This document shows, one piece after another, positions 10,840 to 60,148 of a DNA stretch of 64,000 nt. The first letter of the stretch is position 1. Each line of letters begins with the position of its first letter. Both the position numbers and the translations under genes were made by a program. The DNA lies in NCBI GenBank assembly GCA_021613535.1, contig CP075495.1, forward strand, positions 310,001 to 374,000. The letters are read 5' to 3'. Source of the stretch: Adineta vaga (lineage: Eukaryota > Animalia > Rotifera). The notes under the pieces are model-generated. The model searched no databases. It had not been told where the DNA came from and was given only the letters and a program-made list of their open reading frames with translations.

Positions 10840-12144
10840 CCTAACATCAACTGACATCATCATACAATTCTGCGGCTTTCAAATGGCCAGTACACATAAA
10901 AGTAAGGTACCATACACTGTAGAAAAAAAGCGTAGAATTACAAACTCTCGAAAAGGATTGATGGTCGCGATATGAACCCTTTTGTGAAACACGATCTGAA
11001 AGAGAGTGTTTAAGGGTAGAAATCTGCCCCCCCCCCCTCACAGGCGTGATCGACACAAGCAGCGATTCATCACAGACGTGACCGACAGACTAACAACCCC
11101 ATTACGACGTTACCGGCATACGCAATGACCTCATGTTGAGTGTGCGCGCGCGGTTGAGCGTAGCTTATTTACACTTTAGACTTACCCACAGTAACCCTCA
11201 TTCAAGTACACCCTCTATTCATTTATCTGTGAAAACTATCACAGATAATTCAGATTTTGGCAATAATTAGGGATGTAACAATACCAATACTTCCAATACA
11301 AATACCAATACTCCAATACGGTATTGGTATTGTTACATCCCTAGCAATAATGTAAACGCAGAACAATTATTGATTAGAGATCTCCGTTGCAATAATAGAA
11401 ACAGATTTATCGTGTTTCACATTTCTAATCCCACTACGGATTGCGCTGAAAGCATTTTATGTTTATAAATGTTGGTAAGGGTTTCTTATGCGTTGCACTT
11501 TCATAAACCCTTTAGGGTAGATCAGCATTCATGTACCCTTTAGAAGAACCGTAGAAAAGAAAAGCGGTTTTCGAGAGTTTATGAAGTTAATGAACCCTTT
11601 AAGGGTATACGAACGTGGAACGTATAAAATACCCTTCCTATAACTCATAAGATTAATAAACTCCTTGAAAGGGTTTATTATTCTGCGCTTTTTTTACTGT
11701 GTAATAGCTATCTTACCGAACTCTTTTAAGGTACGCTTTCGTCGATGTAATTTAAATTTTGGCGATATTATTTCGACTAAACAAGTCTATCAGATTAGTT
11801 TTGAGTCGATAGAAGTCACGAAAAATGCATCTCCTGATGAAGATCAGATAGAGGGTGATAAGAGATCAGGAAATGTCTCATAATGGTGAAAGTTTGCGGC
11901 AAAAGTTTGAGGAGGAACTAATAGGTTAGAAGGTCTATATATATGGCATAGCCAGTTTTAACGAATTTGTATTTTTCATTCAACTATCAGGAAAACGGAA
12001 ATAGGATACAAGGTCGATAGGTAGCACTTATGTACTCACACACTCCCATGCCACTGGCTGATCATCATTCGGTGTTGCTGAATTAAAAAATTACTTTTTT
12101 ATTCATTAATATAGGGTTTCTACAATTTTGGCATACTCTGTAGT
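10840..12144. repeat. Interrupted copy of the 37.5-38.9 kb repeat family; left flank (target) of the Helentron
   Basis: 10845-10915 matches ~38265-38335, and ~11770-12144 matches ~38380-38752 (e.g. gcatctcctgatgaagatcagatag; tactcacacactc; catactctgtagt vs cataccctgaagt). The continuation reappears at 29740-29826. Confidence 0.75.
11268..11343. mobile_element. 76-bp hAT-type mini-MITE
   Basis: TIR tagggatgtaacaataccaatac / gtattggtattgttacatcccta (23 bp, perfect). Perfect 8-bp TSD gcaataat (11260-11267, 11344-11351). Confidence 0.92.
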
Positions 12145-12425
12145 GGACAAGTAACGCTCGTCGTGCCGACTCACTTAACCCTCGACTGTGGAGGACAGAT
12201 ATTTTTTGAGTGTCGCAATAGTGAGACGAATTGACCTAGCAACTTTACATATGAGGAAATGGTTGAAGTGCTTTTACTGAAGTATTTATTACTCTTCGAA
12301 AACAAAAGTACTCGATTTTTCTAATAAAATCAACGAGAATAAGACGTATTTTTCATTGTGATCTTACAACAATATCATGAGTACTAGCAGTCAGGTCCAA
12401 AATTAAACAAAGCAAACAAAGATCG

Positions 12426-15400
12426 TCAGAAGCATTGAGCAAAGCGTAGTTGTGTTTCTGTATATAGTTTATCTAATCTTTCCGTCTCCGCAAGTTGCGA
12501 TTTTGCTGGCTTCATCAACAAAGTTTTGTAATCGAAATGTCTTAAAATGATTAAGTCAGTCAGACGTTTCACACGTGACAATGGCACATAAATTGCGGCA
12601 ATATCATCAGTTCTGCTTGGTAGTTTTAAATCAATGACAACATTACTCAAAGTTTGACCTTGACTTTTATGTGTTGTGATAGCAAATGCAGGCACAAGTG
12701 GCAATGCACGTCGCTTAATCGATATAATTGTTTTTGAATTTGATCTTGGTTTCTTATCTTTTGGTAGCATATCAGCGATATTAATACGGAATGATTGTTC
12801 CATCAATGGTATCGGGATGAGATTTGATTGAAGTTGTTCGAAATTGCATTCAATCTTCGACCGAGCGACTTCAATGATGGCGTACAATGGTTTACGGATA
12901 TATTGTATATTACTGAGGAATGTTTCTGAGATACTGTCTGTTGACACAGAATTTTCTTCATACACAAGTTGTCGAAAGATTCCATTCATTCCATTGATAA
13001 AACCCAGTTCTATAGCAATATTTTGTGTTAACATAACAGACATTCCAGGAACCAAAGATAAAAGACCAGGTAAATGCTCTGTTCTGCTATCAGATAATTC
13101 TAACAACTTTTTAACTAATTTTGGATCTTCGATTGATTTGCCTTTACAACTATCTTGAGCAGTGCACACCATAAGAGCTTGACCCACTTCTACTGCCTTA
13201 TGAATCGCTGCCTTATTGTTTAGTCTTGTCCGTACTTCGTTTCGGAACACGAAAATGGGCGCCTTAAAAGACGAAGATAAATAAGTATTCGATAGAAAAA
13301 GAGTTCTTTACTTTATTCCAAGGTGGATCACATAGAGAATTGACTGACGGTTGTCCCACAACTCGTGTTAACAGTAACTCATAATCGTCATGGTTACATT
13401 GTCCAAGACGAAGTCGATCGAGAAGTTGAAGATATTGAGAATCTTCCGTTCGCATCTGTTGAGTGAATTTCACAACGCAGTTAATCTGGAGAATTAGAGA
13501 ACGTGCAACACGTTGTTGAATTTCCTTCTCATTGAGCGATTTGTCTGGTTTTTTTTTCGATGGTAAAGAAAAATCAGTATATAATGGTGCATCGAATATG
13601 GGTCGGTATTGCATATAATCACCGAAGAAAATGACGTTTACACCACCGAACGGAATTTGAGCAACGACATGTTTTGCAGAGCACATTATTCGATTAAGTT
13701 TTGCCAATAAATGTAAACCAACCATACTTATTTCATCGATTAATAGATATTCAACCAGTCTCCACTCCTTTTCAAGTTTCGAATCACCTGCTTTAATGAT
13801 TCGTGGCTGTCTATAATTTCGTTGTTCACCTAAAAACGAATGAATGGTCATACCGCCAATTTCAGCAGCTGCAATCCCAGTAGGTGCAAGTTTTCGCATC
13901 ATCTGCATCCTTTTGGTGATAACAAAGTATTTGCTAAGAGCACGAATAAGTTGTGATTTGCCTGTACCGCCACATCCTGGTATGCACATTATAAGTTGAC
14001 CATTATTGTGACCTAGAAAGACGATAAATATTATCTTCTGGTAGACTATATTATGAAAATACCTGTACGATATTGACTATCACCATCAAGATGACTCGTA
14101 ATGATCATGAATGCGGCACGTTGCTCTCTATTCAATGTGAACTCATCAGCAATACTTTTTTGAGTGGGAACATTGGTTGTAATTGACACAACTGGAAGAA
14201 TTGAACCACCATTTGCGAGATTGCTGTTATTATTGTCACTAGTTGAATTCATTATTGTTACCATGGCATCTTTTGCAGCATGCATATCTGAAGATTCATC
14301 TGCTGTCTCATGATTACCTGTAATTAAACTTCGTCTTGCTCGTTCTTTTTCTGTTTTCAATTGCGCTTGTCATTTCTTATTTAAATTAACTAAATTGTTG
14401 GTTGCAGCAACAAATGGTCTAAGTTGTTGATTCATAGAGTCAGTAAATTCATTTGAGGTAGACGAACGGCTACCTACAAAAAAATCCATATTTATATTCT
14501 ACTTTGGATCAATAATTATCGCAAACTGTGACTCACTGGTTATATCGCTAAATCGTCCAACTTTTTCGACCGCCTCGATAGTTTCTTGAATATATTGATC
14601 TTCTGTTGTTCTTTTTTCGGCATTAGCTGCTGTAGTTGTATATTCATCTATGTCTTTTAACAACTCTGATAAAGCTTCATTATCATCTATATCGTCTTCA
14701 CTGTCAAAATTTCGATCTGTAGGTACAAGTACTGGATCGATTTCGTTATCATCAGTTTGCGCTTCTGTAATAACTTGAAATAGGTGTGCATCACGGTCCT
14801 TCTTACATTCATGTAAAAGTTGAATATTTTCTATGATCTTCCATGCGTGAATGGAAATGTGTGATTGACGAGAATTGAAAGCATCTTCCCACGTTTGGTT
14901 GAGGTCACAGAGATCAGCAATGGTGCGCCAAGGTACAAAGAGTGTAAGGATAGCTCGACAATATCGCTCTCGAGTATCAACACGATCTTGTCGAGGAATT
15001 TGTGGACCATAAAGAATCGGCACATGAGGTTCAGTATATTTCATCAAAACATGTGTTTTTGCTTGTGGATGTTGATTTTGGAAAGCGTAACGCTCATTAG
15101 GTGGGCGACCTCTTTTGTTGCCTTCGTTTTCTCGCGATACCATATTTGTTGATAAATATCTCAAGTCAGTTGCATTCATCTTTTTTTATATACAGCGCTA
15201 ACAAAATCATATAAACACATGCTGTTCAGAATATTGGAACGATATTGATAATCAATTCTTGTATTAACGAGTACGTAGTTTTTATCAGAATCAGGAGATT
15301 GAAGTTGGAAATTTTCTTCATCGTTGTTCTCATCATTAGTAGTTACATCATCAGGCATATCATCATCAGACAGATTATCATCAACTACGTCTAAAATTGA

Positions 15401-18400
15401 AAAATAAACGCAATAAGCATTAGTGTTTATAAATAAATTGTTTACCTTCGGCTAAGTGTGTCAATTTTTGTTTTACTCGGATCTGATTAAGCTGTGCTTG
15501 TAAATATCGTTCAGTTTGAATTAGAAAAAGACCTTGAAATTTGTGTGTCGTGTAATGGTCATTCCAACTCATGAGATAAGAAGCAACCTGTACTCCAGAT
15601 AGCTCTTGTTGAGAAGCAAGTGCATTGTAACACCGTAAAACCAATTTTCGCGATTTTTCAATTATATTCTGTTGATTCGTTTGATGAGATGGATCCACGA
15701 TAGTTGTAATACATTTTTGTACAAGAGAAAGTGTGTCATGGAAAGAGATACTCATTTTTGTTACATAGTCAGTAACATAATAGACAAGAGCTTTTGTATC
15801 ACTGCCGCTCCAAATAAATTTGATATCCATATTGGAACGACAAGCTGCTATAAGATACTCGTTAAAATTGTTGATCATTGGATCCGAGCGACGCATTGAA
15901 ATATTGCCAGTGTCTGGATCAACCGTTGACACGCGGACTATTTTTCGTGGCATACGCATGCGACAAATTTTTTTGAGGCCTCCCTTCTTCTTGCAATATT
16001 TATAGCAAGTATCAGTGTGGTAATGAGTGTTGCCTGTTTCTACCAACTGTACTACATCTGCTCGAAATCTTGATGAAAAATTAGGCGATGATAGATTTGG
16101 AGCAAATGAGCAAGCTGGTATTATTTTTGAGTTTTTATTTGAGGTATTATTTGTATCTAAAATAGGAATTAGATGTTCTATCCTCTTCTAATAATTTACA
16201 ATATCGTACTTCGTGTTGGTTGATCACGAGTTGGTGTTCGCATTGATTGATGTTGAGACGGAGAACCAAAGGAAATAGTTGACGCGCAAGCTCGAACTGA
16301 GGGAGATTGTTGATCTCTTCTTTGTGTCGCTTGAACAGGAGACTGGGGTTCGTTTTGATCACCATCTGTCAAATCGATAGTGCGCAAGGTTGTGTAAATA
16401 TTATTCTGTGAGCTTTTTTGAGGAGTATTAGATGAACTTGGTGCTATAGTATAACAAAGAGAGACATTCAAACAAGAATAAAAAGAAAAAGAGCCGTGCT
16501 ACTTGAATTTCCGGATACAGGTTTTTCCTTGAACTGATCTAAATCTTCTTTGATAATATCTTCCAAATAAGCTTTTAACTTTTCACGAAAATTGACATCT
16601 TGAATCTTTTCTTTAAGATCAGCGGATTTCATATCATGAGCAAGCCAAATAAGCAAATGTAAATGGAGAGAACCTCGCCCTTGGCTTTCAACAGTGCCGA
16701 AATAAGCCTTTACGGGTCCAAGAACACCACCCATTATCATAGTATCCAAGATATTGGTGATCAATACGTGAAAAAATTTGGCAGTGGCAACTGGATGTGA
16801 TGCTACAATTTCAGCTCTTTTGTAAGCATCCATAAGCTGTTCACTTTGAATATTGTCCAAATTAAGTTCAACCCCTGCAAAATATAGTGCTACAGGACTA
16901 TGAATATCAGCGGGATTTATAGTAAGGAAGATGCTGGGTAATCCTTGATTATATATAAGTGCATGGATTTGTGTGCGCAAAGCCGTACGTGAATACGCTG
17001 AACCCATGACTCGACCACCAACAGTTTTAATATGTTGGAGAAGCTTGTTCAATGTACTGTTTGACTCCGCACGACTGTACGGTTGCTTCAAACTGTTCTG
17101 AAGAGCTATTTCAATATCTTTACTATTTAACGATTGAATTTCATGGGCAGATGATCGAAAGTAAGGTTTTGTTGCTATCAGTTGAGCATGAAAACAGGCA
17201 TCACGACGTTGTAACAGATTAAAAATCACAAATATAAAACTCTCGCTTGTTTCAAAACGACGATCATTGTAAGATAATAGATATCGAATGTGCTCTCGAA
17301 AATTTACTTTAACTGGACGTGATTGATCTTCGGGTGTGCCAAGTCCATAACAGAATAAAGTTGGATACAGACCTGCCAATAACTTCGGATTGAAGTATTC
17401 GTTGACAGGTTTTGATGAATGAGGAATTAGGTAAATATTCTCGGTACTTGACTGATTGTTCTGTGTGTTATTTTTAATCTTGTTCAAAACGTAGGTAGAA
17501 ATTTCTTCTGAAGATACCGATGAGCCATCAACATCGAGAACAGCACTAAAAGAGACAGTCTATATGAAACAATTGATTTAATAAATATCCTTACCTATTA
17601 CTGATAGGTATTGCATCTGCAGTAGTGCATTCTTTCGGATCTAATAATGGATCGGGAACATATCCAGTTCTTTCGGGTTGATCCTTTTTATCACATATCT
17701 TTTGTTCTAAAGTTGATATAATGCATTCTGGCACATCGTCTTCCGGTAGTTGATTAATGTTTTGAAGATTTATATTAATTTTCTGATAAAGCATATTGTA
17801 CTTTTTCAACCATCGTAATGCTCGAATAATTTTCTGCTTACGTACTGTGAGAACTTTTTTTAGTTGAATACGATCGGGTGGACGAGCTCCAATAAATATT
17901 ACTTTCAGTGTATCACATAAATTGTCAAGCGCAAGTGGTAAACTATCGACAATATTTGGTACATTTTGAAAAAAACTAATACAATTTCCTTTCAATGCTG
18001 TTTGAGCAGTAGTAGTTGAATGAAAAGGCGAATGCAGTTTTATTATGCAACTATTATGACGATAAAATGAAATTAGTTTCTGTTCTGGAAGTGTCAATCC
18101 TTGCAGTTCAGCAGGTATGTCACCTATCCACATACTATTAGAAGGTGCGAACTTTGGGACAGATTTCTTCGAGAGGGCAACATGACATTTTTCACAAAGC
18201 CTGCACATGTTTACTTTCTTTTGCTGAAATAAACCGCTTTTGTATAAAATAACATCGTTTTGACAACAGAGCGATGACGAACTAAGTACTGAGAGATCTA
18301 AACAAATAAAGTCTGTATGCACTTTGAAACCACGAAATTACCTTTGTTATTCGCAGTATGTTTCGTTGTTTCTATATGGCTGTTGCTGAGGTTTTCATCG

Positions 18401-20091
18401 TCTTCGTTTAAATGTTTAATCAAACCCTTTAGCTCTTCAGAAATTTTAAGTAGATGACCATTCGGGATTTTTAGGACTGGCATTGTTTTCGAGTCTTTCG
18501 CTCGAGTATGAACATTGCAAACTGCGCAAGTGACTTCAACCAACATTGACATAGACATTTGTTCTAGAAACTGTTGTAAACGAGCCTCTTTCAACTCACG
18601 AGCAATTGGTTCAGGCCATGCTTGATCAACAGAAGGCCGTGACTCAACACTATTTCGGTCAATACCATTGTTTTCATATGATTGCTTTTCAAATCGTTTT
18701 GCAAGTCTATTGGTTTTGCTTAGTTTCCTTTGTTGTTCGAGTCGATTCCGACGTTGCTCTTCGGTTTCATCTACCCGAGCCGATAGACTTCGTTCTCGTG
18801 CTTTATCAAGCCGATTCTGACGTTGCTCTTCGGTTTCACTCATACGAATAGATCGGCTTCGTTGTCTTGCTTTGCCGAGTCGAATCTGACACTGTTCTTC
18901 TGTTTCGTTCAAACGACTTGATTGGCTACGTTGCCTTTTCTTCTCAAGTTGAATTTGACGCTGATTTTCTCTATCACTTTTCCCATTTTGTATTGAGCCT
19001 GAAATCATTGGCCCAGCGAGGTCTTTCTCGACGCTGCCATCAGTTCGTATTGGTCTACTAGGAGAAGATTGAAATTCTGGTATTCTTATTTGGATAGAAG
19101 AACTGTTCTTGAATGTTTTCTTTTGAGGAATCTAAAAACCTTAACATTAATAGATATTTGATGTGCTAATGATCGACTCACTACATTGATTGACGTTGAG
19201 TTATTGTGTCTGTCAGACTCATTTTGCATATTTGGCAATAGAAGTGGAACAAAATGATTCGGAATCCATCTACCATTACTCGTTGCCCGAGCAACATCTT
19301 GGTTTTCGGCACGCGACCACAAAATAGCAATAAAAGAATTAGCGATGACAGTTGGAACAGGTGTGAAGACGCTATTCCACAAAGCCATATACTGCTCAAA
19401 ATTAATTTTTGGATAGACACTTCGTATTTTACATTGTAGGACATTGGATAATGCGGCTACTTCATATAATTCGGAATATGTATTTCTTTTACAAATAGAT
19501 TGGATAGCCGTGTCGATAGGTCCAATCAAATGTGAATACATAGTTTGATAATAATTTTCATTCGACATAAGTTCCATGATATTTCGAACTAAAAATGGGT
19601 ACGAAATTAATTATACAATAGAATAGAGGAAAAAGTAAATCCTTTTACCTCTTAATTCACATGTGGTTACCGATGAATTATTCATCAAAAGAAGAATAGA
19701 ATGGTATAAACAATTTCCATCACCAGGAACATCGACCGGGAGAAGATGATGAACATCATCAGCCGCTTTTTCCAGATATCTCTTCGCTAACAGATCCACC
19801 GCATGTTTTCTCTCGTCGAAAACTTGAATGGGATGAAATTGCAATGGTACCACCAATGATTCAATCTACATCATAATACACATCGAAATTTAATCATCAT
19901 TTTATTTTAATCAACTTACTTGTTGAATTTTGTTTACAACCAAATTGATTTCATCGTAGTACATAGCACTTTCGGAACATTCCCAGAAGTCGAAGTACTC
20001 GTTTGAATTTAAGATCACGATTCATTGTGCTACATTGTGAGCAACAATAACCTGCGCAGTTTACGTTACAAAAAACACATCGTGTGCTCAT
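12426..20091 (-). pseudogene. Multi-exon Helitron-like OTU-Rep-Pif1 helicase gene, mildly disrupted
   Basis: N-terminal Cys cluster (MSTRCVFC..CCSQC); OTU-like VPGDGNCLYHS...PNHFVP; ETEEQR repeats; HUH Rep motifs FLTINPAD, VESQGRGSLHLH, YVTDYVTK; Pif1 motifs GCGGTGKS, LIDEISMV, FGDYMQ, THKSQGQTL, YVPLSRV. Many short GT-AG introns. Lesions: frameshifts near ~20000 and ~15180, in-frame TGA at ~14370. No C-terminal endonuclease. Confidence 0.92.
18730..18965 (-). repeat. 69-bp coding tandem repeat (ETEEQRxxRL...RS, 23 aa, ~3.5 copies)
   Basis: Visible in the ORF 18298-19008 translation and as recurring acgttgctcttcggtttca in the DNA. Confidence 0.85.
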
Positions 20092-20239
20092 GTTTATGTG
20101 CTGATCAGTTTCAATTGTGTGTAATACGGCCAACAATTGAACAGAGTTCTGCACACGATCATGCGACTGACACTTTCGTTTAGGACTTCTCTGACGTTTT
20201 GTTGGATTTGGTTCGTCTTGTCTTTGTTCATAGTCACCA

Positions 20240-21401
20240 TACTGTGTTGGACAATCGCTCGACAGGTGCCTACGATCTCCACACAAATAACATCCGTACA
20301 AATTCAGCTGTTGACAGATGTTCGCATCTTCTGTTTTTTAATCGGATTATCTACGTAAGAACTGAGTGTACGCACGTTTCTGTTTGTCAAGTGTTTGCTA
20401 CTCAACTTTGATGTTGCTTTATGTGAATACTTTTCATTACAATACTAGTTTGGTAATATTTCGGTTTTCTGAAGGAATAATTGTTTTAGTTGATTTGATA
20501 ATTGCTGGTTCCTGGCTCGACAATATAAAATGTCTTCTATTTGTTGAGCCTCGGCAATTATTTCATTCAATGAACCATTACGAGATTTTTTTATCAATTT
20601 GAATAAGTCCTTACGCATCCGACATAAAAAGTGTTTGACTAGATCAGTTTCAGTTTCATTCGGTTTATGTTCTCTCCAGAGAGCATGAAGACGAACTGAA
20701 AACTCATTTATAGTTTCACCCTCCTTCTGTTTACATTCATACCATTCAGCTTCTTGACGTGGTCTAGAAACCGTTGGATTAAATTGTATGAGAAATAATT
20801 CTTTAAATTCTTCCCATGTTCGCAGTTGACGATGCGACAGACCTAACTGAGAGTACCATTCCAGAGCTGATCCCCGTAGAAATTGTGAAACACCGTTGAG
20901 TAATGTAAGACTATCATCAAGACGTACTGATTTAGCATACTCTTGAACCTGAATCAAGAAATGTGCCGGACTTTCTGAATGCTTTCCGTGAAATACAGGA
21001 GCCTCTGAGGAAGATGGTATCGTAATTAAACACTCTGCATCGTTTGCCGAAAGTGCTGATGATATATTTGCTGCACCTTTTACCTCATGCTCCATCAGAC
21101 CCGAAGCTATTGAAAGGCCGTGTTCCGAGGAAGTATCTGTTTTTAACATTGATAGTCTTTCTGCTTTATATTCTTCCACTATTGCTTCACTATTCTGTGA
21201 GATAATCGGCGAGGTCATTACAGGTCCTGTAAATTTATTTAACTTGTTCAACATACAGTTCATTTTTGTAATCATATCAGCATACAAGATACAATTCGAT
21301 TGTTGTTTGTTTTCTACATTTTGTGTACGTGTCTTCAACCTGATGTGATGTAGGTAGTGATGGAGTAGTCGCTGTACTTTCAAACATCGACTGCAATTCA
21401 T
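20240..21401 (-). pseudogene. Ty3/gypsy-type gag-like gene (copy A) with detached CCHC knuckle
   Basis: PVFHGKHSESPAHFL..QEYA..SQFLRGSALEWY..W.EFKELFL..F..CKQKEGETINEF (retrotransposon gag/capsid-like). Knuckle CYLCGDRRHLSSDC lies downstream, separated by TAG (20445) and a frameshift. Confidence 0.8.
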
Positions 21402-21805
21402 AATTGTTTGAATTCATTTTTTCGTTTGTGACAGCTGATTAACAACGTTGATATTTCACCAATTTGATCTTCTGATGCACTCACCCAATATAAATTAATT
21501 TTGTCAACCAGCTTCTACCGCAAATACTCTCATCCTGGGGCAGTATAAAAAATTTGATCAGTGTGATATGGGTAACTGAACTTAATGGTTTTGGTTTATA
21601 TTGGGTGTATATCATAGAGCATATGTACCATTTAATATCCGTTCTCTCTCTCCTCCCTATCTTTTTACCTTCTCTCTCTTCCCTATCTTTTTCTTCCACT
21701 TACTTATTTACACATACTTGTATCGATGCACATAGAGTAGAAATTACTCTTCTATTTCATAAAATATCGTCCAGGTTTCTACCGATTCTCGATTGCAAAA
21801 AAATC

Positions 21806-23163
21806 ATGCCGTCTGAAAAAAAAACTTTAATTGAAAAAATTCGATTAGAAGAAGCTATTAAACGCATTCAAAATATGTGCGTAGACAATGCAGAGCGAAT
21901 CACAAAATTAGAAGAGAAACATAATCAGATATATAAAAGTATTACTCAAAAATATGAAGAAGCAGAAGGACGAATCTTAGATATACAGAGCCAAACTGCT
22001 GAGATGCGCATGAAAATGACATCAACATTAGACGAAGCGAAACAACAATTTGACCCAATTAAACAACAATATAGTGAAATTATCCAAACATTAAGTTCTC
22101 TAAGTAACGGAGAACAATCACAGTCACAAAATATTCAAAAGTCTTCAAATTCGTCAAAAAATCGTTTATTATCTACTCAACCAGTGTTAAATATAGACGA
22201 TCACTCAAATAACACTAATGAAACTATGCCTCTTCTTCAAGTAAATGAAGTTAAAATTCCAAAGCCACATTCAATTATAGTGCCTTTACCGACAGCAATT
22301 CCAACTTTCTCTGGAAAAAATTCAGAAAGCCCCAATCAATTCCTAATCCGTATTCAAGAATATGCTGAAATAGTTTACGGATGGGATGAGTCAACTCTAC
22401 TCCTTGGCATTTCTCAATTTTTACGAGATGCTGCATTAGATTGGTATTGTCAACTGAGAGCTTCTGATCGGCGTCCGCACAAATGGTCAGAATTTGTCAG
22501 TTTATTTATGTTCCAATTTCATTCGCCTATACAAATTGCTCATCAACAACAAGAGTGGTACGAATGCAACCAATTGGAAAATGAAACCATTAATGAATTC
22601 TTAATCCGCTTACGCACTATCTGGTATAAACAAAAGCCAAAAGAAACAGAAGCTGATTTGATAAAGCACTTAATGTGCAAAATGCGAAGCGATTTGTTTA
22701 CCATGATGGGTGTGATCCCTGGTGCTTCCCTGGATGATATTATATTAGAAGCACAAAAAGCTGAAGAAATATTATATTGCCGTAATCAGGAACAATCTTT
22801 AGCAAAATGTTTTAAACAAATTTCACTTAAAAACAATATTTTAGGTAATTATGAACATTTTAAAATCACGATCATAGAAAAAAAATCAATTGAATCTTAA
22901 AAATTTTTATTTTAGAATATTCGTCCGACGAAGAAAATGCTTTTCATCAAGGAAATAATGGCAACTCATTACAGGATACGAATAATGATTCATCTAAAAC
23001 ATCAAATTCTATTCAGTGCCGAAGCTGCAGAATATTTGGACATCTTTTTAAAGATTGTCCGAATAATAATGCGGACTTTTTTATTCCATCAACTGCTAAA
23101 AATTCCCATTCAAAAAACGAACACAGAGCGTTGGCAAGACGGGATGCCGACGCTCATTTATAG
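21806..23163 (+). CDS. gag-like gene (copy B), 2 exons (21806-22844, 22916-23163), coiled coil + capsid-like domain + CCHC knuckle
   Basis: IPTFSGKNSESPNQFL..SQFLRDAALDWY..CNQLENETINEF. Predicted intron G|gtaatt...tttattttag|AA (22845-22915, 71 nt) removes the TAA at 22898 and joins in frame to CRSCRIFGHLFKDC. Confidence 0.8.
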
Positions 23164-23546
23164 AACCACCCGTCCAAACAATATCTCATTTTTATCCAGT
23201 TGATTTTACCAAACACAATCCTTTTACTGTTTCAGGAAAAATAGCTGGTATAACAATTCCTTTACTCATTGATTCAGGATCATCATTGACAATCATTAAC
23301 AAAACGCTATTTTCAAAGCTACCATCTTATTTTCATCAACAAGCTAAATTGTGCTCACCTTGCTTATCTGTTCAATTAGCGGATAGATCCGAGCTGGATA
23401 TCGAATATGTTGTCCTCTCATTACCTGTTACTATTTCAAATACAACCCGTTGTAACACAGTTTATGTAGCACCTCGATTATCTCGGTTATGTATTATCGG
23501 ATATGATCTAATACAAATACATAATTTACAAATTGATGGAGGATAG
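23112..23546 (+). CDS. Retropepsin-type aspartic protease in the -1 frame of gag B
   Basis: LLIDSGSSLTII active-site motif and CIIGYDLI C-terminal motif. Slippery heptamer A AAA AAC at 23112-23118 in the gag frame, with the -1 frame open to TAG 23544. No RT follows. Confidence 0.8.
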   Translation, partial: KKRTQSVGKTGCRRSFIEPPVQTISHFYPVDFTKHNPFTVSGKIAGITIPLLIDSGSSLTIINKTLFSKLPSYFHQQAKLCSPCLSVQLADRSELDIEYVVLSLPVTISNTTRCNTVYVAPRLSRLCIIGYDLIQIHNLQIDGG

Positions 23547-23849
23547 CATACTGCATACTTCAAAAGTTCTAATGAAAATATATCGGATGATGGCAAATAC
23601 TGACAAAACAAATGTTTGTGTGACAATTTCCTTTTGTGAGCGTCTCTGTTCTTGAGATTGTCTATTTTTTTTATCGCTATCGCAGTTTGTCTTTTTCTTT
23701 TTTTCTGCTGACAGAATATATCCGATTACATCTCTATACATGATAAAAAAAGAAATAATATAAAGACCACAAGTTAAAAGAATTAAAAGAAAGATATTCC
23801 AGCTTGAGAAAAAAAGTTCGTATATGTGTATAGATGAATGATATAAGAG

Positions 23850-24085
23850 AGAACGAAACAAAGTTCACCGATTGAACAATGTTCGTACACGTGTATATAT
23901 GATGGATATCAAAGATGATGAAACAACGTTCACCGATTCAATGATGTTCGTATATATGTATATATGAAAGATATAATAGATGATGAAACAGCGTTGAACA
24001 ATTAAATCATCTTTGTATATGTGAAAGATATAATAGATGATGAAACAACGTTGAACAATTGAACCATCTTTGTATATGTGAAGGA
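23850..24085. repeat. ~57-65-bp tandem repeat, 3-4 diverging copies, between protease and env
   Basis: Unit gatataatagatgatgaaaca(g/a)cgttgaacaatt..catctttgtatatgtgaa occurs twice nearly exactly, plus upstream variants. Confidence 0.8.
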
Positions 24086-25840
24086 TATATGCAGCAGCAT
24101 GAAAAGAATGATCACGTGGATGAGTATAAATAGAGGAGGCATCGTACGAAATTTTATACACTGACTATTAAGATTTGAACGAAACACATCGTGTATTTAC
24201 TAAAATAATCGGTTTAAAGGTGATTATTTTGATTATTTAGTGGAAGAAGAACCCGTTAAGATCATATATACACAATAAATACAATAAAACAATCGGTTTA
24301 ATGGAAAGGATGGCAATTGTGGGTGTAAGAAATATTACATTTCTAATAATCATCACACCTATAAAAGTCTCAAAATCAGATGATTGGTTGTTAGCAAGAC
24401 AGGATATTGTTCATCCAACTTCCGGGCTTATTTTACAATATAAATCGGATTATAGACCCGCGAACAGAATTGTCACATTGTCAACAGTGATTCCTATGGT
24501 AGCTGATATGTGCTATCTGATTCCAATTTCTGCTTTTACAAAATTCCTCGATGTAACTTAACAATCGATGTGGTAAATTTTATCAATCATGATATCAAGA
24601 CCACGAAAAAGCCCGGGTTGATGAGCAGAAACAAAAGATTTTTAACTGATATCATTACTATTGGTATGAGCACTGCAGCTTTGGCTATGTCAACCGCAAA
24701 CATGATCCAAACCACAAACTTAAACCAAGAAGTAAAGTCATTAACAGAAACAGTTAAAACACTTCAAAAATCGAAATACACACAGGATGCTCAAATTCTA
24801 CAGCTCAGAGATGGACAGTTCAAAATAGCTGTGGAACTTAACAGTACACAACAAGCGATTAATCGGACAATGTATCTTGTCAATCAACACACAGATACTC
24901 TGCAGGATCATGATGAGGCCATAAGAAAAATTGGTGAATTTTCCACTTTTATCAATAATAAAGTGAATCAATTCATGCATAATGTTGAGGGCCATTTCCT
25001 GCATACTTCAATTGAAGGCATTCTCCGGGGTAATCTGAACTTACATTTTATTCATCACGACGATATACCGAAAGCTATTGAATATGTCATAAAAGCTACA
25101 AACATCTCATGCGAAGATAACAATAGCTCGATGTCAATGGTTGATTTAGTAACTCGGCTACTCGTTCGTCAAGAGATTTCGTTTGTCCCTACCATCCAAT
25201 TAAGAGCTTCGACATATGGGGCAATCATCAGAGAGTTAGTGTTTAACTCGTACTTTGCAGCTTCAAACTATGACGAAAAAACATTTTTTGTATATGAGCC
25301 GATACCAATTCCGTTCAAGCATGGACATAGACGTGTTAGAATTTCTCAAATGCCAGCTTTCATAGGAATTCAGCCGGATTCTCGTGAGTTTGTTCGATGG
25401 TCACGAAAGAAGGCGGAATCTTGTTGTTTTGAAGTGATGACATCATGCCGCATAACGCCAGCTATCCGAAAAGACCTTGAAGACATGTGCATTTATGAAG
25501 TTTTAGCAGATACATCATTAAGATCGTGCCGCATTGAACCTTATCTGGAGTCAGTATTTGTACGTAAAGTTGGGCATTATTGGGCGATCTCCACAAACTC
25601 GACTACAAAATGTCACACAGCTACCCATCCAGATTCCAACCACTATAAAGCAATGGACAACCATACGATCACCCTACCTCCAACTGCCTTAATTACTACC
25701 AAAGATTCGATGGATTCGTCATGTGACTTATTTTACTTGCCGGGCCTTTCAGTCCAATCCAATTCAAAACTTGTTCTCTATCAAAACTATACAATTAATC
25801 CTGTGGTTGGAGAAGTTCTTGATTTGCACTCCTTAATTAA

Positions 25841-28605
25841 CCCTCATACGCCCACCTGTAGGACTACCACTTATAACCCACCTGGGGTCCGCATGGACCC
25901 CAACCCAATAAGATAGATATAATACACCTTTTAAGTAGTATACTATGCTAGTATTATGTGGTATATAGTTTGTCTCTTAGACACTCATTAGCTTATAAAA
26001 AGAAACTATATTTCGTTATTTTATCATTTATTTCTAAAACATTTTTGTATAATCTACTTTTATCCTAAAAATGTTTCACTACACGTCGTGCAAACAACTC
26101 TGTGATGATCTGGACAACAGGGAGCATTACAACTTGAACAGTGAGTAATAACCTTGCGATCACGCTCTCTTGGGCAAAGATGGCAACGTTGTTTGGTAGT
26201 AGCCGTTGAAACAATAGATGGGTGTGAAGTAGTAACAGTTAGTCCAATCGCTTGTATAGCCATCAGAACGTTCTTTTGAAGTGCCTGTGGTTGATGTCGT
26301 CGTCGATCCAAATGCAACTGAACAAGATCATAACCTAATTCCATTAGAAATAGACATCGACGGTAGTTTTTCTTTTCATTCCATTGAGGATTTTTGGTTG
26401 TCCATACCACAAAAGCAGCAAGAGCACCAAGATCAAGTATGTTGAAAAAGAAAGTCATTGGCCATCGTTTTGTCTTTCGTTTGCACGAATAAGTTTGAAC
26501 CATCTGGTCCATATGATCAACACCACCTTTTGTGCTATTGTAATATAAAATAATCTCTGGTTTTTTCTTTCCATCGTCGACAATTGTCTGATCATGATGA
26601 AGAGATGACAGCAGAATCACGGTATGTGATGTTTTAGGTACATAACTAACTAGTGTTAGCTGTCGATCGAAACAAAATATAGATCACTGCTCAGGACGTT
26701 GTGTATTTGGCTGCAGCTCCCGTGTAATTCCCTTTTTGTTTCGTCGAATAGTTCCTACAAGAGTTGTTTGAACACCTAGAAGATCTTCTGCCAAATCTGC
26801 TCTGGTAAAATAGTTGTCTGTAGTAATGGTTCGTCCTGTATTGATCCAAGGATATGCTGTATCTGAATCACAACACCAAAAGATCTTCAGTCCATATTTC
26901 CCAGGTTTACTAGGCATATATTGACGAAAATTGCATCGACCACGAGTTGGAATAAGCTGTTCGTCTACCGTGAGCGATCCACCAGGCGTGTAGCATATTT
27001 GTAATCCACCTAAGAACATTGTCCATAAATCTCGTATTGCTGCTAGTTTATCTGACTTCAGTCTTTCCTCTCGTGTTGTTGTATCGTCGAATCGGCAAAA
27101 CTGAAGTAAGGCTTTGAAACGATTCTTGGACATAGTTGCTCAAAATATAGGTCGTCCATTGATCATTGACCACAATTCATTCAAACTTTCATTCTTTGCT
27201 CGATGAATACCTGCGAGGAGTAATAACTCAATGAAAGCCCACATTTCTTCAAGATCCGTATCCCTCCATTGGTATTCTTTACCAGAATTTTTCTTATTCC
27301 ACTGTCCCAAGATCAGATGCGCTCGTCGATTAGTTTCCTTCACCAAGATAAGAACCATTTCTTGAGTGATCAAAACCTGAAATGCTTCTTTCACTGTTTG
27401 TATACCTGCAGCTAGTCGTCCAACACCATTTTGCTGTCGTAAGATATTAGCTGATGGTATTTTTCTTTTGGGAGGTTCCTTTGATGTCCATTGACATCCA
27501 GATTTTGCTGTAAATATTTGAACTGGTGATTGCTCAGCCTTTCATTGACGTTTTGCTCGACGTCTAGGTGGTTCATCATCACTGTTACTTTCAGTTTCAA
27601 CAGTACTTGTACCAGATTCATCATCTGAATCCTTTTCAACCACGCCACCATCTGATTCATCAGAACTTTCTTGAAGAGTAAAAGGTATTTCGTCATCTTC
27701 AGAATCATTATCAACATCATCATCTTCGTCGTTCGACTCATCGTTGAAGTGCTTGGAATATCGAGACCAGTGTTTCGATTGATTGGAATTAGAGCGTTTC
27801 TTCGAATCCATATGTTTTCGTATAATAGTCGTAGGTAGTGAGATATATAATGACTTTACTATTTCAGTGAATGGGTTTATATAGGTTTTTATGAAGAAAA
27901 TCAAAGAACTCGCTAGAAAATGGCAGAAATAAGTGGAATTACTAGAAGCTACAAGAGAGAGCATATGTCATCTATATAGAAAGAACGAGAAAAAAAACAT
28001 GTGTACTTGAACATACCAGAAAAATGATGCACGTATGAACGTATGATAGCAGAACGAAATAAGATATACATATAATATGTATATATAGTGACGTCATGTC
28101 AATAGCAGAAAGAAAAACCTATGCATGTAGAGTCGTACTGCACAAAAGTATTATTCATGAAAATATTCAACTTTTACATTGGAGACGTAATTATTTAAAA
28201 AAATAACAGAAGAGTTGTAAGAATAGTCAGATATGCAGAATATACCGTTTTAATGCGACTGATATATTTCACAGTTTATTAGAGAGCTATAGAATATTCC
28301 CACATGAGTGGACAGATGTATAAAATATGAGAATGAAAAATTTATGATCAAATATTAGGAGAAAACTAATGTTATAATATGGGGTCCAGTTGGACCCCAG
28401 GTGGGCAATATACGTATATATCAACTTTGAAGTAATTTATCTCATAGATGACTTAAAGAGATAAGCGAATGCTTTCTATAGTATACTCTACTACTCTTCA
28501 CTAGAGCATATGTAGAGTGGCGTGATATGATCTGTCATCGTATATATAAAACATTAGAATGAAACTAGCTGGGGTCCGCATGGACCCCAGGTGGGCGTTT
28601 CAGGG
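25841..28605 (-). mobile_element. piggyBac transposon, defective
   Basis: TTAA TSD on both sides; TIR ccctcatacgcccacctg / caggtgggcgtttcaggg; internal GGGGTCC-N4-GGACCCC palindromes at ~25884, 28381, 28571. Confidence 0.95.
26060..27811 (-). pseudogene. piggyBac (PGBD4-like) transposase with stops and an internal deletion
   Basis: Acidic N-terminus; TVDEQL, YMPSKPGKYGLK, ITTDNYFT, YNSTKGGVDHMDQ; C-terminal CHLC..CSSC..CC..H..CTTC. Broken across several ORFs. Confidence 0.92.
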
Positions 28606-29410
28606 TTAACAACAATACTAAATGGGAGAAATTACCGTACATCCCGTCACACATTCAAAGCATACTTCACCTGATGAGTAACATTACAGAAGCTCCTTAG
28701 ATCTTCTTTTGGGGACAATTTAAAACCCATTCGACAATCACTTTCAACATTATATCAATAGGAGTATTAGTTATACTGATCATTTTCCTGATAGGTTACA
28801 TTCGTTTCAAACATCAGAGAAAATCAAAAGTGACAATTACCATACCATCACTCAAAACACTCGAACAACAGGAACTAACGCTTAGCAAGTGACAGCAATG
28901 TCCCTGTTTTTTTTTTGTTTACACATCTGCGCGCCTCTGAAGCAATCCACCTTTGACATTACACTAGTTCTCATCATTTTTCTTGTTAATACTATGAACC
29001 TATCCATAGTGTTGTAATTGTATGAATAAAAAAGATTTTCACCATTCGAAAGCACATACTTTTGTTCTTGTTATCTCTACTCTTCCAGCACAGTTCGCGC
29101 GAGGACAATCATCACCACTCCGAAGCATATATTATAGAAAGAGTTCTACAACGATATTTACTTATCAATACTCTATTCCACAAAAAAACCTACACCTAAC
29201 AAATCTTTTTCTTTTTTCCGATGCACCAACTCCTACTTCAAATACTTCAAAGCAACATACACACTTTGTTTCTTCAATTACATACGCTCCTCCAACCAAC
29301 ATAATTCTTTTTCTCATTTTCTAATGATAATCAGGTACTCTCGCGATTTTTTGGAACCTGCCGGTGGGCACACCAAGGGCGACGTGAACCCAAGGTGCCC
29401 GACAAGAACC

Positions 29411-29505
29411 CACTATGGCCAACCCCGCCCACCTTGGCCAACCACAACCCACCTTGGCCAACCCCATGCCCAGCTTGGCCAACCACCGGTCACCATGACT
29501 AACCC
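29411..29505. repeat. GC-rich ~20-bp tandem repeat (cacc/cagc-ttggccaacc core, ~5 copies) near the Helentron 5' end
   Basis: cactatggccaaccccgcc / caccttggccaaccacaacc / caccttggccaaccccatgcc / cagcttggccaaccaccggt / caccatgactaaccc. Confidence 0.85.
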
Positions 29506-29879
29506 GCGCGCATCTAACATGGGCCACTTTCAGTGTGTTTCTTTTGTTTTTTCGCATACATGAAGTTTGACCTTTGACCCCGTGCAAACAGACAGACAAA
29601 CTATTTTATTTCATATGACCTTCCTTACAGTCGAGGGAATAATAATATAGTAATAATAATAACGTCCCATAGGCTAAACGCTCGTAGGGACCGGCCGCGG
29701 TTATTATTTATTTTTTCTACGTGCAGCCGGGTCTACCGTCTTTCTTCTTTTGCTGTCTTTCTAGTACATACGTATTCATTCTGTCTGATCCAACATCTTG
29801 GTTGATGCGTGAAGGTTTGGGTGTGAAATTATATTTATTTATTTATACACCCTAACCATTACTGGGGTGTGGGTGAGAA

Positions 29880-32058
29880 ACATGATACAAAAAACTGGTA
29901 AAAACGAGAAAACAAAAGAGTGAGTCTATCGTCTATTTTTCGGCGAACACCACGTTGATTGCCACTAAAAATTGAGAGAGATATTATCAGACTATTATCC
30001 TCTGATGAACAGTTTAGATACTAGTCATCATACGAAACCCAATTCAATTTTAGTAGTTGAACAGCCATAAATTTGTTTAGTTGATTCTGTTACTTTTGCA
30101 CCATGTTCTTGCTGTCACGCACGATTTGACATGATTGATAATTCCCTGTGGTTTAAACCTTAGTTTGCAACCAGGACATCTGTATTGTCCATTCTCTTTA
30201 ACCAATAGTTCTGTGACTTTACAATTTGTAAGACCTGTCAAAACAGCTAGATCTGTTTTTCTTCTCTGAGCAGATTGTTTTCTATATTGATATACAATAT
30301 CTTTAATGTTTTCAGAGACTGGTTTTACATAAACATTTTTATTAATTGTTTCACGCTATTTTTTCCTGTCAAGCGTCAGTCTGCGCCAGTTCCGTATTTG
30401 TGATTCATTTATATCTTTTAGGATTTTGTCCTCCCACTGTTGCATCTTCCTACATTACTTGGTCTCTTTTCATCATGAAAATATTTCAGTTGACGGTTGA
30501 CCTGTAATATTTAACAATTTTTCGTTAGACATTCTATCAACTAAGTTTACTCCTATGATTGTCCGTAAGCATTTATTATAGAAAGTAGTTATCCGTTGCT
30601 CTTGTTTTGTTGTAAGAGCCCATGTTTCACTTCCGTATAGTAAGACTGGTAATACACAAGCTCTAAAAATACGAAGTCTTGCTGTGATAGAGACTGATTT
30701 TCTATGCCATACAACATGACGTAGAGCATTGAAAGCTTTAGAAGCTTTTGTCAGTCTTACAGATATTTCTGTATCATGTTGCTGATCTTTCGTTATAGTG
30801 CAACCTAAATATGTAAAAGACTCAGCTGTTTCAATTTTTTGATTTCTGATATTTATATTTATATCGTCATCATAGTTGATAAATTGTCCTTTTAATACCT
30901 TTCTATTTTGATCTTCTTTCAGTTGTTGTAGAGTCATCACACAGGTTTTTTTTATGCTCATAGTCAAACCATATTGTTGTGTGACTTTTTCAAAACATCT
31001 AATAAATTTTTCTAGGTCAGAGATCTTTTCACACATCGCAACGAGATCATCTGCATATAATAATGCTAAAATATCGAAGTCAACATGGTTTTCGTTTTTT
31101 CCGTGACAGAAATCATTACTACCATACGAAAAATTTACTCCTGATATGGCAGCTTCACTAATGACTTCTTTTATGATGAAGTCAAATAGAATATTGAATA
31201 AGAGTGGAGAAGGAATACCTCCTTGCATCACACCTGTATTCATTTCGAAACTATCAGATATTTCACCATTTATTTTGACTTTTGCTATTGAATCTTTATA
31301 TAGCATTTTTAATAAGTTAACCAATTTATCAGTAATGCCATAACTACGACATACTTTCCATAACAGTTCACGATTGACCGAATCATAGGCTTTCGTGATA
31401 TCAATGAAGCACATAAATAATGGCTTATTGAATGCTCTTCTTTTTTCCATTGTCATTTTCAAAGTAAATATCTGATCTATAGTCGATCTATTTGATCTAA
31501 AACCAGATTGTATTTCTAATAGTTGGCAATCTATTAGATTCTGAATACGATTAAGTATGATACGTGAGAACAGTTTACTAGTTGTATTCAAAAGTGCAAT
31601 ACCTCTATAGTTGTCGCAAATTTTCCTATCACCTTTATTTTTGTACAGTTTGATTAGGGTTGTCATGTTCCATTCCGTTACCATCTGTTCGTTCTCCCAT
31701 ACGTCAGTAAAGAATTCGAACAGCCAACGTATTATTGGTTCACCACCAGCTTTTAGGATGTCAACACCCTCACCCACACCCACCCCAATCTCTTTTACTT
31801 CCTCCTCTGAGACGTCTAATAATGGAAAAAGCCGTCATAGGATCATTATTTTTTATCGATTTTTCTATATTTTCACACACTTCATCCCAGTATTCTTCTT
31901 GACGATGTTCTGCCATTATTTTTACTATTTTTGTCAGCCGTTTATAGTTTTTATCACATTTGGGCTCCATACTCGAGCCACGATTATTTTGTCATTCAAC
32001 AAATACTATTGATTTTTTATCAATAATTTTTAGAATATCGTTTGTTAACCATTCTGTC
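29880..32058 (-). mobile_element. 5'-truncated non-LTR retrotransposon (RTE-like), RT ORF 30473-31783
   Basis: NYRGIALL, QSGFRSNRSTIDQIF, FIDITKAYDSV, GVMQGGIPSPLLFN, LLYADD, FTYLG, VLLYGSETW. Downstream remnant includes WRRLTLDR and a CPGC..H..SC finger. Internal deletions at ~31770 and ~30475; no endonuclease domain. Confidence 0.88.
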
Positions 32059-32815
32059 TAAAGGGGGTGTGAAATGAAGAAGTCAATCTAATCCGCATTC
32101 TAACCCATACCCACATCCACACTAATTGTTCTTGAAAGATGTAGATTATGCTATTCTGTGAATGGTTGTAAAGAACATAAAAGGGATTCTGGGCAAAAAC
32201 GCTTTCTAGAAGCAATTAATGGCTTTTGTTAACGGTCTGTTGTTTTTCTTGAATCCATCCAAAGTTGATTATGATAAATGTTTGTAAACATAACTCACGA
32301 AGTTCTGAATGATTGTGTCAGGCATTCCTATGATATCTCAAAAAGTAAGGCGGCTATGGTGATTGCATGCAGTACAGATACCACTTATTGTGCCTATCGC
32401 TTATGTGTCATATAATGACACTGTTAAATCGTACATTGACTGTGGAAGACAAGAAATATTCACATTTATTAGTATTTATGTGAGTTTCAGTGCGAATTGT
32501 GGGAATCTAATACGCTGTCGATGAGTCTGTACGAGCAGTATTCGGTCAGAGTTGTAGATGGCACCTTAACTGTAAATTTAAAGCAATCACTTTGACTGAA
32601 CATTTTGAAGTTGAAGTTAATGCGGAAGCGTTAAACCCTTTTTCAAAATATAGTTAGCGTTAAAGTACTATTCTAATTCCAACCTTGAGTATATATTAGC
32701 GCAGTCTGGAGTCGTATGATTGTCGAAAATATTGAAAATTATTTATTTCTATTTTCAGGAAGCATATTTCTGTACTTAGTTTGAAAGTAGTAGTAAAATT
32801 AATAGAAAATTATCA

Positions 32816-37172: not shown

Positions 37173-37514
37173 ATCCACATGGATTTATTTGAAGTACCAG
37201 TAGAAGTACCAAGTATATTTTTAAAATATAAGCATAGGTACAAGGCGATGTTTTCTGTGTACGATAACAGAGTGCCGTCATATATCCCGCGCTTCAAAGA
37301 CGCTCCTTCATTTCTCGCAGGAGACGAACTGGTCTTTAAAACGCGGGATATATGACACTGCTGGAAAACACAAGTAACCACCCTTGTCCGTAGAACAGTA
37401 GGTTGTGTATTAAATATATAGCATGTTTTCTCATGTAACGTAGAAAGATCCTATGATAGGGAATCTGATCTTGTGGGAAAATCATATTTTATTTCAGCAA
37501 GAAGATATAAGGAT

Positions 37515-47700: not shown

Positions 47701-48250
47701 ATCGAAGTAATTGTTTAACTTTTTCCGAATTCAACAGAAAGTCACTTGATGAAGAAATATCTGTTATATCCATAATTCACTATTATGAATTTTGTATAAA
47801 TCTGAAGAAAAAACATTCGAAATACTACAAAGAAACACTTGTATAGACGGAGAGAAATAGTCGACATTGACTCTTATCTGTACATATTCAATATTTAACA
47901 TATAAGAAGTTTGTTCGTTTCTGTACATGATGCAACACTCGTGTGTGTATCGACGAATCGTACCTACACAATAATTGACTGTCTTTTAGTGACCTCTGGG
48001 GTAGAAATAGAAAGACTGGTCGTCATGAATTACCAGAACTTATGTAAAAGCGTTAAAGTTAAATTTATAAAAATTTATCATACCGCACGGCAGGACGAGG
48101 TGATTCATCCTGTCCTGCCTGCCGCTCCGCTACATCCGTCCTGCAGAGCGGACAGGACAGGACAAAAATTGAGCTCCTCGCCTGCAGGACAGGACAGGAC
48201 AGGACAGGAGGGCAGGATTCGCCGCACATCCTGTCCTGTGCTCAGCTCTG
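44738..48250 (-). mobile_element. hAT DNA transposon, apparently complete (3513 bp)
   Basis: TIR cagaggtgagcacaggaca / tgtcctgtgctcagctctg; perfect 8-bp TSD gtttctat; subterminal (caggA)n arrays at both ends. Confidence 0.95.
45216..47773 (-). CDS. hAT transposase (BED finger, DDE, C-terminal dimerisation domain), 5 exons
   Basis: CFKC..GTTRLKAH, DLRPFSIIED.GF, PDFWTD, ISDRGSNF, CFGHRLN, VRWLS, ATLLNP, PLKFW, IPATSTSVERQFS. Four short GT-AG introns (e.g. 47186-47247) splice in frame. Confidence 0.9.
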
Positions 48251-59916: not shown

Positions 59917-60148
59917 TCTTTAATCAAACGAAATAGTTTGGAGAATAAATTCAAATCTTTTCAAAAGATTAACTTTTATATATTAGATGATTATATGTCA
60001 TAAACATTCAGTTTTCTAATTAATATTTTTCATCAAAAACAGATCAAATGACGTAGAAACAGATGAAATTAAAATACAATTGACGTCGTTACATTTTCAT
60101 CGAGAAAACTCTCGAAGGTTAATTAATAAAATCAAATCTTCTGTCTTT

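Follow-up and report, generated by a model that had tools for sequence, protein, structure and literature searches.

Two groups of mobile DNA are the closest described relatives of the element treated here, a Helitron with a gag-protease-env cargo at positions 12147 to 29642 of a 64,000-nucleotide stretch of the genome of the bdelloid rotifer Adineta vaga (GenBank assembly GCA_021613535.1, contig CP075495.1, positions 310,001 to 374,000; the whole stretch is referred to as the window, and coordinates are counted from its first nucleotide). The papers referred to by PMC number are cited for the passages that were available. The HLE2/Helitron2 transposons (PMC11417382), which insert between T and T with no target duplication and have terminal inverted repeats of 11-18 nt, resemble the element in these short repeats, in a Rep-helicase (RepHel) with OTU and DUF6570 domains, in gene capture and in having non-autonomous derivatives, whereas the present element lacks an endonuclease and carries a gag-protease-env set that is under selection. 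The TelKA retrotransposons, the only bdelloid long terminal repeat (LTR) lineage with an F-like env of ~600 aa (PMC5408684), share with the cargo a CCHC gag, a gag-pol frameshift, a protease and a ~600-aa paramyxovirus-F-like env with an RXXR site, fusion peptide and transmembrane (TM) anchor; in contrast to TelKA, the present element has no LTRs, primer-binding site (PBS) or polypurine tract (PPT), no reverse transcriptase (RT), RNase H or integrase, is enclosed by Helitron ends and has gags of a separate clade.

Regarding other mobile elements with virion genes, Polintons/Mavericks and Teratorn (PMC6431247, PMC10175614) are DNA transposons that may alternate between integrated and particle states, but they rely on a DDE integrase or transposase, combined with PolB or with the genome of a herpesvirus, and on icosahedral capsids of the DNA-virus type, whereas here an HUH Rep-Pif1 gene is joined to genes for a retroviral Gag and a class I envelope. 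Chimeric single-stranded DNA viruses (PMC10175614) similarly combine a rolling-circle replicon with a structural gene from an RNA-based agent, but are small and non-integrating, with jelly-roll capsids and no envelope, and a Helitron that forms a polydnavirus segment (PMC5714489) travels in virus particles supplied by the wasp bracovirus, whereas the present element encodes the parts itself. The available passages of PMC6431247, PMC7943196, PMC11417382 and PMC10175614 make no mention of a gag- or env-bearing Helitron; those of PMC11417382 that list 20 stably captured domains name neither gag nor env (in its main text, the only 'gag' is part of an author's name) and do not mention rotifers, and the word Helitron does not occur in PMC5408684. 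No description of a gag-env Helitron was found in searches of the open full-text literature, which gave no paper on TelKA together with Helitron, although a curated Repbase family of such a layout could exist.

To map the limits of the element, contigs assembled from public sequencing runs of this organism were placed on the region. Both ends proposed in the preliminary description, which had been made from the sequence alone, were borne out as family ends: 58-60 contigs per run start at 12147 in each of three DNA-type runs, and 29641 or 29642 is the stop point of 10-13 contigs per listed row, with AT-rich flanks unlike each other. The whole HLE2 (Helitron2-type) element (12147..29642, reverse strand) thus measures 17.5 kb, or 14.7 kb minus a nested piggyBac, and lies inside a host repeat. 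Its 3' terminus (12147..12189, reverse strand) consists of a subterminal inverted repeat (subTIR, 12179-12189), a weak hairpin and a CTTG(T) end, and its 5' terminus (29580..29642, reverse strand) of the partner subTIR (29627-29637) and a short ACAG repeat. The two subTIRs form a perfect 11-bp inverted repeat, as had been noted, whose 10-nt core matches the window exactly at these two sites only and 5 times with ≤1 mismatch (0.58 expected). The same 3' end was detected in locus L029 (83% over 42 nt), whose Rep is 72% identical, and in locus L017, where a 3' end of this Helitron group (positions 2081-2122, 90% over 42 nt) lies inside the pol of a TelKA-type element. Of the 3' hairpin and CTTGT end described earlier, the end is conserved as a family end, whereas the predicted stem folds no better than shuffles (z +0.85), its sequence being conserved in L029; of the 5' microsatellite only ~10 nt are present here, and a tandem array of 6 x ~20 bp (29368..29505) is found near the 5' end. 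Run contigs also reveal a short derivative in which 12207 is joined to 29093.

The host repeat flanks the element on both sides, 11755-12144 matching 38367-38752 and 29739-29829 matching 38818-38907 of the same window, but the junction is no clean empty site, with ~60 bp of the host repeat missing and ~95 bp extra. Regarding the T-T target, the flanks of the family are A-rich on the forward strand, and the left flank of this copy reads GG. A short repeat with a TAA-rich edge (29643-29738) adjoins the 5' end of the element. The inverted-repeat element at 37478-38907 is a relative of the repeat that holds the Helitron and, like 3876-4368 and 44750-48219, belongs to the long inverted-repeat elements of the window that resemble miniature inverted-repeat transposable elements.

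Between these ends, a multi-exon gene on the reverse strand (12426..20091) encodes OTU, STPR, DUF6570, Rep (HUH) and Pif1 domains, and the Rep-helicase gene reported earlier is thereby confirmed by Pfam (Helitron_like_N E 1e-36, PIF1 E 8e-25, DUF6570, STPR), by tblastn of relatives and by the HLH, YxxxY and Walker motifs in the transposase open reading frames (ORFs); OTU was scored on the orthologues P0243 and P0317. The native Cys-rich start was confirmed by L029, and in this copy the frame is broken near 19985 and probably near 15180. An apurinic/apyrimidinic endonuclease gave no Pfam match, and only 237 bp lie between the helicase stop and the subTIR. Since no endonuclease gene follows the helicase, the element belongs with Helitron2/HLE2 and not with the Helentrons in the strict sense, and the name Helentron first given to it is to be dropped. 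DUF6570 and OTU point to HLE2 as well, STPR being found mostly in HLE1 (PMC11417382). On these sequence features, the element class is HLE2/Helitron2 without an endonuclease.

The cargo contains two gags, a retropepsin and a fusion glycoprotein, as originally described (Pfam: two Retrotrans_gag; Asp_protease_2 with 24.1 bits, just under the cut-off of 24.3; Fusion_gly E 5e-4, below cut-off). The forward-strand gag, gag(+) (21806..23200, 3' end approximate), has a coiled coil, a capsid domain and a CCHC knuckle (23017-23058), and its profile matches Arc capsids and retroviral nucleocapsids. An apparent break in gag(+) corresponds to a predicted 71-nt GT-AG intron (22845..22915, forward strand), in phase and 83% AT, and the P0199 model of A. 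ricciae has a splice junction at the same point; in a post hoc test, a donor-acceptor pair of this kind arose in 18 of 2000 shuffles. The donor is common to three gags (window, P0079 and P0081) that form one sub-clade (99/91), and gag is predicted to be spliced in one sub-lineage. The gain of an intron would fit copying as DNA, since passage through reverse transcription should remove it.

Downstream, a predicted -1 frameshift signal (23112..23155, forward strand) comprises an A AAA AAC heptamer, a 7-nt spacer and an 11-bp stem-loop (fold z -5.0; 0/200 shuffles fold as well), and the same heptamer is present in the complete element L001. This signal precedes the retropepsin (23100..23603, forward strand, DSG intact) and predicts a fusion of Gag with the protease, even with the remainder of pol lost: pol ends directly after the protease, which in this copy has an in-frame stop at 23544-46. 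The closest protease representative, P0347 (72% identity, 139 aa), has the same end point, for which its contig end could also account. The spacer that replaces RT, RNase H and integrase holds a tandem array of ~65-bp units (23810..24089) and is followed by a TelKA-type class I fusion env (24301..28892, forward strand) with signal peptide, RNKR/F furin site, fusion peptide and TM anchor, whose profile weakly matches metapneumovirus F structures (E about 1e-3). Gag and a frameshifted Gag-protease would be made, and Env cut at its furin site, as predicted from these motifs.

A piggyBac of 2.77 kb nested in env (25837..28609, reverse strand; terminal inverted repeats, TTAA duplication, decayed transposase with Pfam DDE_Tnp_1_7) had been overlooked. 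It is a secondary insertion: in one contig from this organism, 25836 is connected directly with 28606 and piggyBac is absent. The env resumes at 28605-28892. The env of this copy is further damaged by a frame break near 24540 and a stop at 28698-700. Sister copies in this genome have only the 3' half of env in common, from ~25.1 kb (25075-25840 and 28606-29200), and many env models of Rotaria sp. Silwood (clusters P0026, P0029 and P0051) start near the same point; derivatives with half an env may form a separate family.

Regarding the source of the cargo, none of RT, RNase H and integrase was detected inside the element by Pfam, and the pol of a complete relative (1281 aa) aligns only over residues 15-166, the protease. 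Neither an LTR pair nor LTR homology nor a TelKA-type PBS was found in the element, in agreement with the preliminary description, and independent LTR or target-site duplication boundaries, which had been considered there as pointing to a separately inserted retrotransposon, were likewise not found. An LTR-like match upstream of gag(+) was rejected, being only a CT-rich stretch. The complete gag-pol-env relatives L001 and L026, the latter being the one complete LTR element obtained from a scan of genome contigs, fit the TelKA clade and are 40-57% identical to the cargo, the LTRs of L026 (523 bp) being 99.2% alike, and all 8 of the env homologues with a species name (among 41 homologues) are bdelloid. 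The primer TelKA3a_R matches L001, L002, L006, L007 and L026 with 2-3 mismatches, whereas the TelKA2n primers have 0 matches at ≤3 mismatches; dUTPase gave no Pfam score in L001, L014 or L026. On this sequence evidence, the cargo originates from a TelKA-type LTR retrotransposon with pol cut after the protease. Identity with the published TelKA2n, which lacks the gag C-terminus (PMC5408684), was rejected at the primer sites.

Two side observations concern these relatives. Locus L001 (1-16697) consists of two tandem TelKA-type units 8,633 bp apart with one shared LTR region and identical-looking pol and env. The 171-kb contig of L026 (G001:C43) is filed in a cyanobacterial metagenome-assembled genome, looks like rotifer contamination and holds a young complete TelKA-type element together with an intron-bearing Helitron; this Helitron (72% Rep) was rejected as a second hybrid, as it ends 9.5 kb before the complete, unrelated TelKA.

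The absence of LTRs bears on the view that a pol-less or partly deleted TelKA subfamily inserts repeatedly beside the 5' gene start of this Helitron subfamily, moved in trans by TelKA RT and integrase, with particles that serve the retroelement. Two different TelKA gags are present at the same spot, 3 of 20 bdelloid-type loci have lost the stretch from gag to env and a non-autonomous, env-bearing TelKA2n has been published (PMC5408684), but the window has no LTR, PBS or LTR homology for the cargo, primers for TelKA2n find no match, an RNA stage is hard to reconcile with the predicted gag intron, and the same gag clade stands beside 5/5 Reps of the Rep clade described below, which together render this view improbable.

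The second gag, gag(-) (20445..21413, reverse strand; Pfam E 3e-12), belongs to another TelKA subfamily, being 50% identical to gag(+) over 193 aa and pairing with P0171 (66% identity, support 99/97). Its capsid domain is open, but there is a stop at 20445-47 and the frame breaks near 20340. A zinc knuckle and the start of the pol frame follow (20101..20337, reverse strand, from ORF reading) and can be read in frame, with no intervening stop, as far as the start codon of the transposase at 20091. This leader ends ≤10 nt from the native transposase start and may be the relic of a Gag-RepHel fusion or a matter of chance. An intracellular role, in which a Gag shell or scaffold serves Rep-helicase and DNA, possibly as a Gag-RepHel fusion, and Env is incidental, would account for this in-frame join; however, a frame match is expected by chance in one case in three, P0171-type gags stop before the knuckle, A. 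steineri has no gene between Rep and gag(+), and Env itself is under selection, making such a role very improbable.

Comparison of the Rep, gag and env trees, as had been proposed, revealed that one Rep clade matches one gag clade and that the window env falls in a clade with A. steineri. The Rep, DUF6570 and OTU segments of the window each form an exclusive clade with exactly the same five Reps (support 96-99, 41-75 rows), recovered in IQ-TREE with 100/97 for the Rep clade, three of the five Reps being included. The gag trees were calculated with FastTree on the large set and with IQ-TREE on 30 rows; the distant L021-L025 (22-24%) were left out of the trees, and the gag tree was also made without the short or duplicate L007, L015, L016 and L018-L020. 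The Rep-linked gags form one clade in both (14 of 129 rows, support 100; 11 of 30 rows, 100/99). This clade has no pol-linked member: 0 of the 11 locus gags with pol after them, 7 of which reach RT, fall within it. Similarly, the envs of the window and A. steineri form one clade (99), with the pol-linked L001 and L014 outside.

The cargo was not confined to this copy, which had been regarded as a possible objection, but recurs beside the closest Reps, as Rep-gag-env in A. steineri and as Rep-gag in A. ricciae. Linkage in these species was derived from accession order and contig size of protein clusters, ~18 accession numbers being taken as one gene. A. steineri has Rep, gag and env in steps of 17-20 in four series, CAF0939428/445/465 (337,855 bp), CAF3859271/288/305, CAF1039182/200/219 and CAF1102460/478/496 (377,751 bp), which represent two variants (Rep 91.7%, gag 96.3% and env 98.8% identical). 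At ~18 numbers per gene, the annotation leaves no place for a pol gene between gag and env, nor for a gene between Rep and gag(+), and gag (465 aa) and env (606 aa) are full-length. In A. ricciae, Rep and gag are found at CAF1489052/086 (43,061 bp) and CAF1538730/713 (11,056 bp), which probably represent a single locus present in two assemblies. Thus, 5/5 Rep-clade proteins stand beside an orthologous gag, while at least 1 of 31 Reps outside the clade has a contig size in common with a cargo protein (10 env and 12 gag clusters compared). The pattern recurs in part elsewhere: gag and env of the cargo clades have contig sizes of 63,875, 16,555 and 7,234 bp in common, and orthologues of gag(+) (71%) and gag(-) (66%) one of 5,411 bp. 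A 15,569-bp contig of Rotaria sp. Silwood2 with env CAF3374219 and Rep CAF3374280 is a weak case, with the Rep outside the clade and the env partial; CAF4308346/CAF4308423 was rejected as a linked pair, the contigs being of unequal size. A shared contig is by itself a weak sign, as the unrelated Helitron and TelKA on one contig of G001 show, and the trees carry the weight. Viral contigs scanned with env, gag and Rep gave no relative in a weak scan that is not counted as evidence.

The lack of 20.2-29 kb in sister copies, mentioned in the preliminary description as a point against a hybrid family, was seen in part, in this genome, where other Reps do not run on into the cargo and most copies are accordingly without cargo or truncated, but linkage is kept in the two other Adineta species. 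Contig depth in run X7 was 13.6 for the cargo and 27.7 for a host gene; these are not copy numbers and serve as a hint only. In runs guessed to be RNA, the neighbouring host gene was covered and the cargo next to not at all, which is counted neither for nor against.

Selection on the cargo was analysed with a site-class test on Rep-linked pairs, in which sites conserved in outside TelKA relatives are compared with other sites. For gag, conserved sites differ at 23% vs 51% of others between the window and A. steineri (p 8e-7), 25% vs 58% between A. steineri and A. ricciae (p 5e-9) and 22% vs 44% in a third Rep-linked comparison, with all p from 1e-4 to 5e-9; for env, the values are 22% vs 47% (p 7e-7). 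Neutral simulation gave a ratio of 1.0 with a minimum of 0.69 (200 runs each), and after 20% neutral change, frames were stop-free in 1/300 runs for gag and 3/300 for env. Gag and env of Rep-linked copies diverge by about 25-45% with functional motifs kept: a basic furin-type site is present in 13 of 15 envs examined and the CCHC knuckle in 6 of the 13 clade gags inspected, while several of the remaining ones stop early or have short models. By this test, gag and env diverged under purifying selection, with site-class ratios of about half against the neutral 1.0, and the neutral divergence of the cargo earlier considered as an objection was not seen.

These results bear on passive hitch-hiking, in which an old TelKA insertion lost pol and LTRs within the Helitron and was carried unused, the selection signal dating from before capture or arising through repeated replacement by active TelKA. 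In this copy, gag(+) is the one cargo gene without a break, the majority of Reps in this genome have no cargo, several A. ricciae and Rotaria envs are partial and an A. ricciae protease model has DSR instead of DSG; transposable elements also cluster, as seen in the 72% Helitron 9.5 kb from an unrelated complete TelKA and in the Helitron end within TelKA pol (L017). However, hitch-hiking is unlikely, as the site-class test covers Rep-linked pairs and hence the time after their split, full-length open genes exist at 30-40% divergence, and one gag clade corresponds to one Rep clade with no pol-linked member.

The same selection signal could also be due to benefit for the host, with Env and Gag restricting env-bearing TelKA by receptor blocking and capsid poisoning and the carrier Helitrons kept by selection on the animal; restriction factors of the Fv1/Fv4 type are a precedent. 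In gag(-), the knuckle has been lost in the window and P0171, yet the capsid domain is still constrained (27% vs 46%, p 1e-3); the cargo is low-copy in this genome, and active TelKA relatives exist (L026, LTRs 99.2%). On the other hand, more has been preserved than a decoy would need, namely the furin site, the fusion peptide and the TM anchor of Env as well as knuckle, protease and frameshift signal, and the carrier is still mobile, as seen from intact termini, insertion in a repeat and A. steineri variants 92-99% alike. Host benefit is thus considered rather unlikely, although slightly less so than hitch-hiking.

Thus, comparison of Rep and gag clades, linkage in Adineta and selection together support a Helitron family that recruited gag and env, as the preliminary description had suggested, and a stably inherited hybrid Helitron-gag-env family is well supported and very probable. 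Gag, protease and env were likely gained in one old capture. On general knowledge of such transposons, the Rep-helicase would copy and insert the element, so that RT, integrase and LTRs would be dispensable while the module for particle making and entry is kept. The reading preferred here, with a probability of roughly 0.5, is that the cargo would form an enveloped, virus-like particle that serves the element by carrying its nucleic acid to other cells. Such a particle may contain element DNA, as a circle, or alternatively element mRNA, with the transposase brought into germ cells and resident copies mobilised. A particle with dimeric RNA holds about twice one TelKA unit, and the 14.7-kb element is near twice the 8.6-kb TelKA unit of L001. 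A further reading of the gene content, regarded as possible but tentative, is that of an endogenous virus with HUH Rep-Pif1 replication and integration, its own enveloped Gag particle and no reverse transcription, which would pass between cells or animals.

Several observations weigh against particles in the service of the element. Rep, gag(-), the end of the protease and env all carry breaks in this copy, and in this genome, the cargo (19841-25102) is one low-depth contig while the Rep region is multi-copy. The Adineta linkage is at annotation level, by accession order and contig size; next to Rep and gag of A. ricciae no env was detected, and Rep was found at 0 of 25 metagenome gag loci, although none of these is of the cargo clade and most are <7 kb. 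Derivatives of TelKA without pol also exist without a Helitron, in L010, L011 and L019 (the 3 of 20 bdelloid-type loci, gag close to env and outside the cargo clade) and in TelKA2n, itself non-autonomous and env-bearing (PMC5408684). Selection indicates that the proteins mattered, not for what. Regarding the packaged form, circular double-stranded intermediates of a bat Helitron are donors whereas single strands are not (PMC5876387); Helitron donors would thus have to be double-stranded, while Gag knuckles bind single strands.

Other features of the window lie outside the element. A long interspersed nuclear element (29830-32176; RT 30473-31834) is located next to the host repeat; a haplotype that lacks this element is suggested by contigs in which 29829 is connected with 32177. 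An intronless host gene on the forward strand (32780-34936) encodes a 718-aa protein without a Pfam match, possibly of foreign origin, which by eye we take to resemble a fusion of nucleotidyltransferase, HAD phosphatase and kinase. Further host genes encode a nucleotide-sugar transporter (40157-41377), an NHL-repeat protein (51582-52523), an acyltransferase-3 (54865-56007) and a rhodopsin-family G-protein-coupled receptor (58921-59919).

Known sources of Gag shells and class I envelopes are reverse-transcribing elements and genes domesticated by hosts. A DNA transposon lineage that has lost RT, integrase and LTRs but retained gag, protease, env and the frameshift signal crosses the divide between class I and class II elements, and the element represents a new form of HLE2, which would be categorically new if particles carry it. 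Even without particles, whole structural genes have been captured and kept under selection by a Helitron, and the capture and keeping of full-length genes by Helitrons has been called exceptionally rare in a review (PMC6431247). Intact natural gag and env are available in A. steineri, a culturable animal. The finding bears on the movement of Helitrons from one host to another and on the persistence of transposons in the largely asexual bdelloids, both open questions; if the element is indeed particle-borne, it would provide a horizontal route for DNA transposons of asexual rotifers.

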